A stretch of DNA of 40,141 bases from an uncultured Pseudomonadota bacterium (GTDB taxonomy: Bacteria > Pseudomonadota > Alphaproteobacteria > Rs-D84), in assembly GCA_900313285.1 (NCBI GenBank), contig OMQP01000001.1, positions 1 through 40,141 of the forward strand, in the 5' to 3' direction. Shown in pieces: positions 36,826-37,719 of this stretch. The translations under genes were made by a program, and so were the position numbers. Every line of letters starts with the position of its first letter. The stretch's first letter is position 1. Below the pieces are notes generated by a model, which searched no databases, was not told where the DNA came from, and saw only the letters and a list, made by a program, of their open reading frames with translations.

Positions 36826-36834
36826 TGATATAAT
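36826..36834 (+). promoter_or_regulatory. extended -10 element TGaTATAAT
   Basis: tttgTGATATAATag, 27 nt upstream of ATG 36862. Confidence 0.4.
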
Positions 36835-36880
36835 AGAACAAAAGAAAAGGGGAATAAAGTCATGAAAGCCGCAGAAATCT

Positions 36881-36908
36881 ACACACACACACACACACAC
36901 ACACACAC
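36881..36908 (+). repeat. (AC)14 dinucleotide microsatellite inside the first codons of the gene
   Basis: 28 nt of perfect AC repeats, read as THTHTH.. in the ATG frame. Confidence 0.98.
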
Positions 36909-36958
36909 GGGTGTCTTTGTAAAATAATATTATCCATAATCGCAATCGCGATAATAAC

Positions 36959-37004
36959 CCCCACATACGCAAAAGATTCAACCCCACATACGCAAAAGAT
37001 TCAA
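36959..37004 (+). repeat. perfect 23-bp tandem duplication (ccccacatacgcaaaagattcaa x2)
   Basis: Copy 1 is 36959-36981 and copy 2 is 36982-37004, and they are identical. The unit length is not a multiple of 3. Confidence 0.98.
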
Positions 37005-37719
37005 ATAATCATATAGAACCAAGTCCAACAAACGATTGTGTCGAATCAACATTGGGTACAGCAACTGGTCCTGCAAATTTGGAAGCAGATTGGACTGCAA
37101 ACACATTAACAATAGATTGGTATAATGGTGATACAAAATTATCATCAAATACATGTACATATGATGGACAAATAATATTACCATCAACGAACCCAGAAAA
37201 AACGGGATATACATTCCGTGGTTGGCAGGTTAGAACTGTACGACAATGCAGTTTAAAAGATTTTGCTGCAACCGTAGGAGCAGCGTCTACAAGTGTATAT
37301 GGTTCAGGAAGGGGGTTTATAGAAACAGATCCTATGAATGACAGAACTGCTAAAGCGGATGTCTTTGGTTTAACAGAAAAAGGCCAATGGGCAACAAATT
37401 TTGATGGTGGTGTGGTAAAGGGTATCAGTATATGTAGTAGTACGCCTTCCAATACCTATAATCAAGTTGTAGATAATGTATCTGCTGACAAAGGTGATTA
37501 TTGCTGGTGTAAACCAACAAGTTTTACTTTAAAAGAAAATGATATCATTGGTGAAACGTGTATGATTATATCTTCAAAATGGATTTATGCAGAAAAAGAT
37601 TGTTGGAACTGTGCTTGGTATTGTGCTAATTATGCAAAAGGGGATCATGCTACGAAGGTCGCTTACAAAACAAGTTTGTTTAATAATTTTTAATCATTTC
37701 TTAATAAAAACGAATACAC

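Follow-up and report, generated by a model that had tools for sequence, protein, structure and literature searches.

Gene Structure and Reading Frames

The window analysed here, that is, the whole 40,141-nt stretch of contig OMQP01000001.1 from an uncultured alphaproteobacterium of the Rs-D84 lineage, carries on its forward strand a gene for a predicted secreted repeat protein that is split over three reading frames by an (AC)14 microsatellite and a 23-bp tandem duplication. All coordinates below are window positions. The upstream TcpQ–secretin unit is closed by an intrinsic terminator (36771–36801; 13-bp stem, five GC pairs, T-run), which is followed by an extended −10 element without a −35 box, TGaTATAAT (TGATATAAT; 36826–36834). 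The promoter scanner demands a −35 box and hence did not list this element, which was read directly from the sequence, and its conservation was checked across the related cassettes described below. A Shine–Dalgarno (SD) motif, AAGGGG (36847–36852; AAGGGGA to 36853), lies 9 nt 5′ of the ATG at 36862, and the three elements are placed exactly where the first-pass annotation had put them. The ATG opens a 19-nt leader (36862–36880) encoding MKAAEIY, which is also the N-terminus of the intact proteins P0003, P0004, P0049 and P0052, and its end, CCGCAGAAATCT, adjoins the AC tract directly. Beyond the stop codon, a bidirectional intrinsic terminator found by terminator scan (37720–37753) is common to the gene and the convergent rpsT. 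Because intrinsic terminators stand on both sides, the gene is its own transcription unit and not the tail of the secretin operon.

The (AC)14 tract (36881–36908) was recovered by Tandem Repeats Finder with 100% matches. It starts 19 nt after the ATG, in the 5′ coding region, and its unit is not divisible by 3. It is the sole dinucleotide run of more than five units in the window, where long homopolymer runs are absent, and the word (AC)8 had an expected count of 0.00 in 100 dinucleotide-preserving shuffles of the window. From the ATG at 36862, the frame reads MKAAEIY(TH)4TGVFVK and ends at the stop 36925–36927. The frame starting at 36909 reads GCLCKIILSIIAIAIITPTYAKDSTPHTQKIQIII and ends at the stop 37014–37016; by translation and hydropathy it contains the hydrophobic h-region and the c-region of a signal peptide, GCLCKIILSIIAIAIITPTYA (36909–36971), with predicted cleavage after A and before KDS. 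The third frame has no stop between the second PTYAKDS and the TAA at 37691–37693, and its intact stretch 36983–37693 encodes the signal-peptide end (PTYA) and a 232-aa mature protein, stop included.

The frame is shifted between these two parts by the 23-bp duplication, which Tandem Repeats Finder reports as 2.0 perfect copies (36959–37004). Copy 1 (CCCCACATACGCAAAAGATTCAA) occupies 36959–36981, while copy 2 (36982–37004) is the extra copy, a +23 nt frameshift that is private to the window’s assembly. The 40 kb contain no other perfect non-AC tandem duplication whose unit reaches 12 bp. The earlier statements on the tract, the perfect duplication and the three-frame split all hold at the sequence level; the boundaries of the duplication stand too, with the small correction that they can be extended 2 nt (AA) leftward, which amounts to a 2-nt microhomology.

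Repeat numbers were simulated from 8 to 19 AC units combined with one to three copies of the 23-mer. A single open reading frame (ORF) of 266–272 aa arose only with 10, 13, 16 or 19 AC units together with one 23-bp copy, and no AC number rescued the two-copy allele. Between the tract and the duplication, both wrong frames hit a stop within 3–5 codons. The idea that the duplication compensates for the (AC)14 frameshift was rejected: (AC)15 with two copies restores the downstream frame, yet earlier stops intervene. Transcriptional slippage and programmed ribosomal frameshifting use homopolymers or slippery heptamers, not dinucleotide arrays, and both were rejected for this tract because it is a dinucleotide array. 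The single ORF reconstructed in the first-pass annotation exists in nature, since protein P0049 of the related locus L094, with (AC)13 and one 23-bp copy, encodes exactly MKAAEIYTHTHTHTHGCLCKIILSIIAIAIITPTYAKDSNNHIEPSPTNDCVE...

The Same Locus in Other Assemblies

Four assemblies of the locus were compared, namely, the window, L001, L093 and L094, and all of them have the synteny TcpQ–secretin–GENE–rpsT–plsY. The source accessions are ERR2027896 / ERZ930613 for L001, SAMEA5384008 for L093 and ERZ27280420 for L094. L094 was found by a cluster look-up of the truncated 213-aa product, which led to the 272-aa member P0049; its gene order is SufB-...-TcpQ–secretin–GENE–rpsT–plsY, and it is 98.6% identical to the window over 6.8 kb. 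With (AC)13 and one copy of the 23-mer (two single-nucleotide polymorphisms, SNPs), L094 has a single intact ORF for P0049 and is in the expressed (ON) frame. P0049 is 94% identical overall to the mature frame of the window, and from residue 85 onward the two are identical. L001 and L093 are 99.3% identical to the window and carry (AC)14 with one copy. Over ~6 kb, each of them differs from the window by no indel other than the 23-bp segment. Since their (AC)14 stands beside a single 23-bp copy, L001 and L093 are out of frame (OFF) through the tract alone. Three further contigs encode the identical truncated 213-aa product and are therefore not ON.

The comparison across related assemblies that had been proposed thus gave 13 versus 14 AC units, with one 23-bp copy in all three other assemblies. 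With an ON allele at (AC)13 and OFF alleles at (AC)14, the locus, as judged from its assembled alleles, appears in both states, one AC unit apart.

The 23-bp duplication was found at none of the three other orthologous loci and at none of 13 paralogous loci, and no other tandem duplication was present in any family gene examined. Because it is absent from all these 16 family loci, it looks like a private mutation, and the suggestion that it forms a second lock on the gene did not find support. The 2-nt (AA) microhomology that bounds it would fit replication slippage. The duplication is best read, most simply, as a private secondary lesion gained while the gene was already silent at (AC)14, and we infer that its origin was neutral. 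Nothing in the compared sequences supports a recurrent or selected role of the duplication as a switch. By analogy with other tandem duplications, precise loss of one copy is mechanistically possible, and the allele is not necessarily dead.

A Conserved 5′ Cassette in a Gene Family

The 5′ part of the gene belongs to a cassette, TGTGATATAAT – AAGGGGRAATAAAG – ATG – ...CCGCAGAAATCT – (AC)n – GGGTGTCTTTGTAAAATAAT, that is shared by 12 loci. The extended −10 element (TGTGATATAAT, TGTGATACAAT, TATGATATAAT or TATGGTATAAT) lies at equal distance in 11 of the 12 paralogous or orthologous cassettes, the SD motif AAGGGGRAATAAAG is conserved among them, and GGGTGTCTTTGTAAAATAAT is 100% conserved in the 12 cassettes. 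The cassette is present at locus L007 of the alphaproteobacterium Candidatus Enterousia merdequi, though the protein there is only ~30% identical. Distant metagenome members (L022, L030 and L031) have kept the leader and the tract with a different signal peptide.

Tract lengths in the family are 12, 13, 14, 16, 18 and 20 units. Read from the SD-proximal ATG, the tract is in frame at eight loci and out of frame at six (the window, L001, L016, L018, L022 and L031). Apart from the window, the out-of-frame loci have intact downstream ORFs of 246–302 aa, and L093 is likewise otherwise intact; the window allele differs from these OFF members by its extra 23-bp frameshift. Both (AC)13 and (AC)16 are ON with the same 19-nt leader (L002, L017 and L012), as expected for a tract drifting in steps of three units. 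One family member has the in-frame tract (AC)5AT(AC)4, in which an AT breaks the AC array; interruption of this kind is the usual route by which such switches become fixed ON. Among 123 small family proteins, 18 start with (TH)n or (HT)n, and gene calling placed the start of several of these at an improbable site further upstream, since their real ATG is out of frame. Judged from these comparisons, the mixture of in-frame and out-of-frame loci with intact ORFs is probably the mark of slipped-strand phase variation rather than of gene decay. The earlier proposal of the AC tract as a phase-variation switch is therefore borne out at two levels, with 13 versus 14 units at the locus itself and 12–20 units with a mixture of ON and OFF across paralogues.

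The 12 nt that lead up to the tract (CCGCAGAAAT/CCT; 36869–36880 in the window) are kept in L007, L010, L018, L022 and L031, and they persist in distant members despite a differing start position, reading frame and signal peptide. This pattern suggests a constraint at the DNA or RNA level, or a recent spread of the cassette, rather than a constraint on the protein.

Two loci depart from the common arrangement. L030 (2486–2840) has a short (AC)7 tract and is in frame at the tract, while a stop replaces the invariant W of ‘LKWYNG’, which would make it a case of real decay inside the family. L003 (3590–4000; JAGHTM010000064.1, Candidatus Enterousia merdequi) has a full cassette (TGTGATATAAT, SD, ATG, (AC)18) that is detached from any ORF and followed by stops, a terminator-like hairpin and ~300 nt of internally repeated sequence, and then by a family gene with its own MKKIFLTS signal peptide. 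This detached cassette may have been left behind by cassette exchange, or it may serve as a regulatory leader upstream of the gene.

The family was searched for at the nucleotide level as well. A profile scan of JGI metagenome contigs returned 74 loci, ~15 of which are true family members and three of which have AC tracts, and a profile scan of GTDB species representatives returned seven loci, all in one metagenome-assembled genome (MAG) of Candidatus Enterousia merdequi. The junction of tract and signal peptide, searched as an exact 28-mer, was not found in the JGI metagenome contigs, and a single-protein scan of genome contigs gave no relative.

The Encoded Protein and Its Relatives

The reconstructed protein has a signal-peptide-like anatomy with an n-region, an h-region and TYA|K. 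The h-region IILSIIAIAII is 11 residues long with a mean Kyte–Doolittle hydropathy of 3.46, and the predicted cleavage site TPTYA|KDSNNHI aligns with that of family members with the unrelated leader MKNIFLTSAIIAVMSYPAIA|LDANNHI... (...PAIA|LD). The alignment of the cleavage sites of two leader types supports the position of the mature N-terminus and, together with the hydropathy, upholds the signal-peptide reading given before. Cleavage after TYA would yield an N-terminal KDSNNHIEPSPTNDCVE peptide. A lipoprotein reading of the GCLC motif was rejected: the hydrophobic stretch before the Cys is absent, as is an L-x-x-C lipobox context.

The mature part has 232 aa, an even number of Cys and no transmembrane-like segment; the first-pass annotation had spoken of about ten Cys in the C-terminal domain, and the count for the mature part is 10, of which eight are kept across the family alignment. 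The conserved N-terminal half contains a Listeria–Bacteroides repeat (Flg_new, PF09479; 37124–37228, mapped from residues 80–114 of the reconstruction), which had been recognized by eye and is now placed above the Pfam threshold, with 28.9 bits against a gathering cut-off of 27 bits. The match is partial and covers profile positions 8–39 of 65. The remainder (37229–37690) is a hypervariable Cys-rich C-terminal domain with eight of the ten Cys, delimited by the drop in identity to paralogues at ~37230. The profile and structure searches proposed for this domain brought no fold or family match, and NCBIfam gave nothing for the protein. An AlphaFold2 (AF2) model from a 37-sequence alignment has a mean predicted local distance difference test score (pLDDT) of 70, with 77–94 over the C-terminal domain, and is shaped as a β-rich core with two C-terminal helices; Foldseek comparison of this model with the PDB and BFVD gave no match at E < 0.001.

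Among 5.8 billion proteins searched, 47 relatives came up, all of them unnamed. Several are intact proteins of 262–285 aa with N-termini MKAAEIYTHTHTHTHGCLCKIILSIIAIAIITPTYAKDSNNHI... and a single PTYAKDS, and others have an unrelated leader. A profile search of 1.84 billion representatives returned 629 proteins at E < 1e-30, which include many single-domain relatives of 230–320 aa and giant multi-Flg_new proteins sharing the terminal Cys-rich domain. Six proteins of 750–6200 aa (P0058, P0060, P0094, P0122, P0126 and P0143) have dozens of Flg_new repeats and end in the Cys-rich C-terminal domain, at profile positions ~110–270. Because it ends giant proteins too, the domain appears by homology to be a reusable terminal module that is not confined to small proteins.

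Mosaic Structure of the Family

Nucleotide identity to paralogues is 85–100% from the promoter to ~37230, the end of the Flg_new module (...GWQVR), and then ~40%. SNPs relative to the orthologues cluster at 36985–37222, with 9 of 14 for L093 and ~30 of 61 for L094, and in its conserved half L094 has the INLEWYNEDTKLTVPTT variant usually seen in paralogues. One type of C-terminal domain occurs with either leader type, as seen in P0005 and P0052 versus P0050, and this shared domain behind different leaders implies that leaders and variable domains were recombined between copies or strains. Taken together, the identity drop, the SNP clustering, the paralogue-type variant in L094 and the leader swaps indicate that gene conversion and shuffling among copies have probably taken place.

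The C-terminal domain AAAPAVSYESCEDIPDETTCDE... was observed behind a (TH)n leader, behind an unrelated MKKLFLTS leader and as a truncated call (P0005/P0052 versus P0050/P0051; L012). Between the window and L094, 13 SNPs lie densely at 37734–37765, where they fall on the loop of the bidirectional terminator and on its 3′ side, and the genes around it are almost the same; this cluster may be the 3′ border of a recombination patch.

Comparison with Known Phase-Variable Systems

In Helicobacter pylori, oipA (hopH), sabA, sabB, hopZ and babB carry CT dinucleotide repeats in the signal-peptide-coding region (PMC10564699). The closest precedent is oipA, which shares with the present gene a dinucleotide microsatellite a few codons past the start, in the signal-peptide-coding region of an exported protein (here predicted to be exported) of a paralogous family; in both, the frame sets ON or OFF, the repeat number differs between strains, and the rest of the gene is intact in OFF alleles, here apart from the window's own (PMC10564699). 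Unlike in oipA, the repeat here is AC rather than CT, encodes (TH)n and lies in the n-region. The product also differs from the H. pylori Hop proteins in being no β-barrel outer membrane protein (OMP) but a soluble-looking protein of 232 aa that combines Flg_new with a Cys-rich domain. A further difference is the host, here an uncultured, genome-reduced alphaproteobacterium in which the whole 5′ cassette, including the promoter, is near-identical between paralogues.

The opa genes of Neisseria, which carry (CTCTT)n in the signal-peptide-coding region, form a multigene family with hypervariable domains whose members switch independently of one another. Like opa, the present family combines a repeat coding for part of the leader peptide, by which each copy would be switched on its own, with conserved 5′ parts, hypervariable parts and mosaicism from recombination between copies. 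The repeat is a pentamer there and a dimer here, Opa proteins are eight-stranded OMP barrels, and there is no sequence or fold relationship. With regard to Hop or Opa homology, no OMP family match was found in Pfam or NCBIfam and no PDB match for the AF2 model; the gene would work like the Hop and Opa families but is not a member.

The duplication has a counterpart in pneumococcal capsule phase variation, where spontaneous, reversible tandem duplications arise in cap3A, cap8E and tts (Waite 2001, 2003, as cited in PMC4243769). As in the cap3A type, a perfect tandem duplication within the ORF has a length that is not a multiple of 3 and abolishes expression, and its excision could revert this. 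As far as that citing paper describes them, the pneumococcal duplications occur at many positions with measured reversion, in contrast to a single instance in one assembly here and 0 of 16 related loci. The product resembles surface proteins with Listeria–Bacteroides repeats (PF09479) in that one repeat exceeds the Pfam threshold and the family profile also matches giant multi-repeat proteins. It departs from them in that it is small, has a single partial repeat linked to an uncharacterised Cys-rich domain and comes from a diderm alphaproteobacterium.

The mechanism is classical and adds nothing to the biology of phase variation, while the family, the portable 5′ cassette, the mosaicism and the host lineage are new. 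Of 16 papers naming the genus, none has a listed title or abstract that links Enterousia or Rs-D84 with phase variation.

Interpretation and Alternative Explanations

The locus is best explained as a stand-alone contingency locus that is switched by its AC tract, with the window allele OFF and the duplication as a private second lesion (probability about 0.77). Its product would be a small Sec-exported protein with a conserved N-terminal half, containing one Flg_new repeat, and a hypervariable Cys-rich C-terminal domain. Switching would act at the level of translation, by slipped-strand mispairing in the (AC)n tract within the n-region of the signal peptide. At n = 1 mod 3 (10/13/16/19), the tract would be read through as (TH)n into the signal peptide and the gene would be ON, while other lengths would lead to a stop after 21 codons and be OFF, as predicted for the window with n = 14. 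The silent gene would be hidden from selection, and the strain may then have gained the 23-bp tandem duplication by replication slippage across the 2-nt microhomology. Because the duplication adds a second frameshift, a change in AC number alone could presumably no longer restore expression.

Several points weigh against this explanation. Switching within a population is inferred from assemblies rather than seen in reads, and three assemblies ~0.7% apart all have exactly (AC)14, which speaks against very frequent switching or in favour of an OFF state that has lasted long in the clade. Only one ON allele (L094) was found at the orthologous locus. Export was judged by simple hydropathy and the −3/−1 rule, and the C-terminal domain is without a fold or family match (Foldseek against PDB and BFVD; nothing for the protein in NCBIfam). 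The 23-bp duplication, moreover, could be an assembly error.

If the gene were a plain pseudogene, (AC)14 would be a fixed frameshift in a decaying gene and the duplication a second step of decay, with no switching at all. The same OFF length of 14 in at least three assemblies, the second inactivating lesion in the window allele and the in-frame stop of L030, which shows that family members do decay, are what this account has to offer. Decay of this kind is nevertheless unlikely, as the same locus has an ON allele whose C-terminal domain is identical, the 232-aa mature frame is free of stops and further indels, and the tract and cassette are kept across species and paralogues; many out-of-frame members are otherwise intact, as predicted for contingency loci and not for decay. 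The duplication could alternatively be an artefact of assembly or consensus, in which case the real allele would resemble L001 and L093, with (AC)14 and one copy, and would be OFF by the tract alone. Such an error would have arisen 50 nt from a 28-nt microsatellite, in a zone that is error-prone for read alignment and polishing, and would account for the sole indel relative to two 99.3%-identical strains. A 46-nt array is, however, within reach of short-read de Bruijn assemblers with k > 46, a perfect 23-nt unit is atypical as an error on any platform, and the 2-nt microhomology fits biological slippage, all of which makes an artefact improbable.

About as improbable is a true double switch, in which the AC tract and the 23-bp duplication are both reversible and selected, so that two slippage events would be needed and the ON frequency would be very low (a deep-OFF state). 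Slippage can precisely remove one copy of a perfect tandem duplication that has microhomology at its borders, the remaining ORF is undamaged and has a C-terminal domain identical to that of the ON orthologue, and reversible frameshifting duplications in ORFs are documented, in work cited in PMC4243769, for pneumococcal capsule genes. On the other hand, the duplication occurs in one of four orthologous and none of 13 paralogous loci, the family genes are free of any other tandem duplication, and the duplicated segment has no hotspot feature such as longer flanking repeats, its microhomology being just 2 nt.

Beyond the single locus, the family may well constitute an undescribed system of phase and antigenic variation in Rs-D84 and Candidatus Enterousia, a reading to which we lean with reserve. 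It would consist of a portable cassette, a gene-converted Flg_new module and hypervariable Cys-rich domains of novel fold, with copies switched independently and with leaders and C-terminal domains shuffled. If true, it would parallel the variable surface proteins of Mycoplasma, Neisseria and Helicobacter, and it would point to bacteria that live in close association with a host or partner and are under pressure from immunity, phages or predators. A tandem duplication acting as a second, slower lock would be a more speculative addition.

Host, Neighbouring Genes and Significance

Candidatus Enterousia and the order Rs-D84 are uncultured bacteria of farm-animal guts with genomes of <~1 Mb and few biosynthetic pathways (PMC12306168), and the closest contigs to the window come from cattle-rumen style assemblies in ENA (STEW19, WILK20 and PRJEB21624). 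These bacteria are known from MAGs only. A switchable, mosaic family of secreted Cys-rich proteins would be the genomic signature of an organism that varies its surface or secretome, and would thus point to dependence on a host, a protist or another bacterium, while the family supplies concrete candidate interaction proteins. Such genes are systematically miscalled in metagenomes, as 213-aa truncations or with odd upstream starts, and the AC tract is a ready marker for heterogeneity within populations in metagenomes.

The rest of the window is ordinary chromosome with thrS, suf genes, a penicillin-binding protein gene, recJ, lolA, tatC, gatCAB, rpsT and plsY, and Rfam found only two tRNAs in the window. 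At 34165–36753 lie a TcpQ-like gene and a gene for a type IVB pilus secretin of the PilN family (247 bits to TIGR02520, which is under the equivalog cut-off), with Suf genes upstream, the gene described here downstream and no other pilus assembly genes nearby. A functional tie of the gene to this adjacent secretin operon was rejected: the gene has its own promoter between two intrinsic terminators, one of which intervenes, and the paralogues lie beside unrelated housekeeping genes (enolase, ligA, pheT, PAP2 and fabF).

The otherwise housekeeping stretch also encodes a VirD4/TraG-type type IV coupling protein (645–2915, reverse strand), an OMP β-barrel (21224–21931, forward strand) and a weak match to an autotransporter β-domain (22022–23572, forward strand), which are further candidates for cell–cell or host interaction. 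Downstream of the gene, the longest plsY ORF (38008–38688; 226 aa, ATG 38008) overlaps the start region of rpsT. This mechanically derived ORF is probably too long, because gene callers on the orthologous contigs use an internal start that gives 195 aa.

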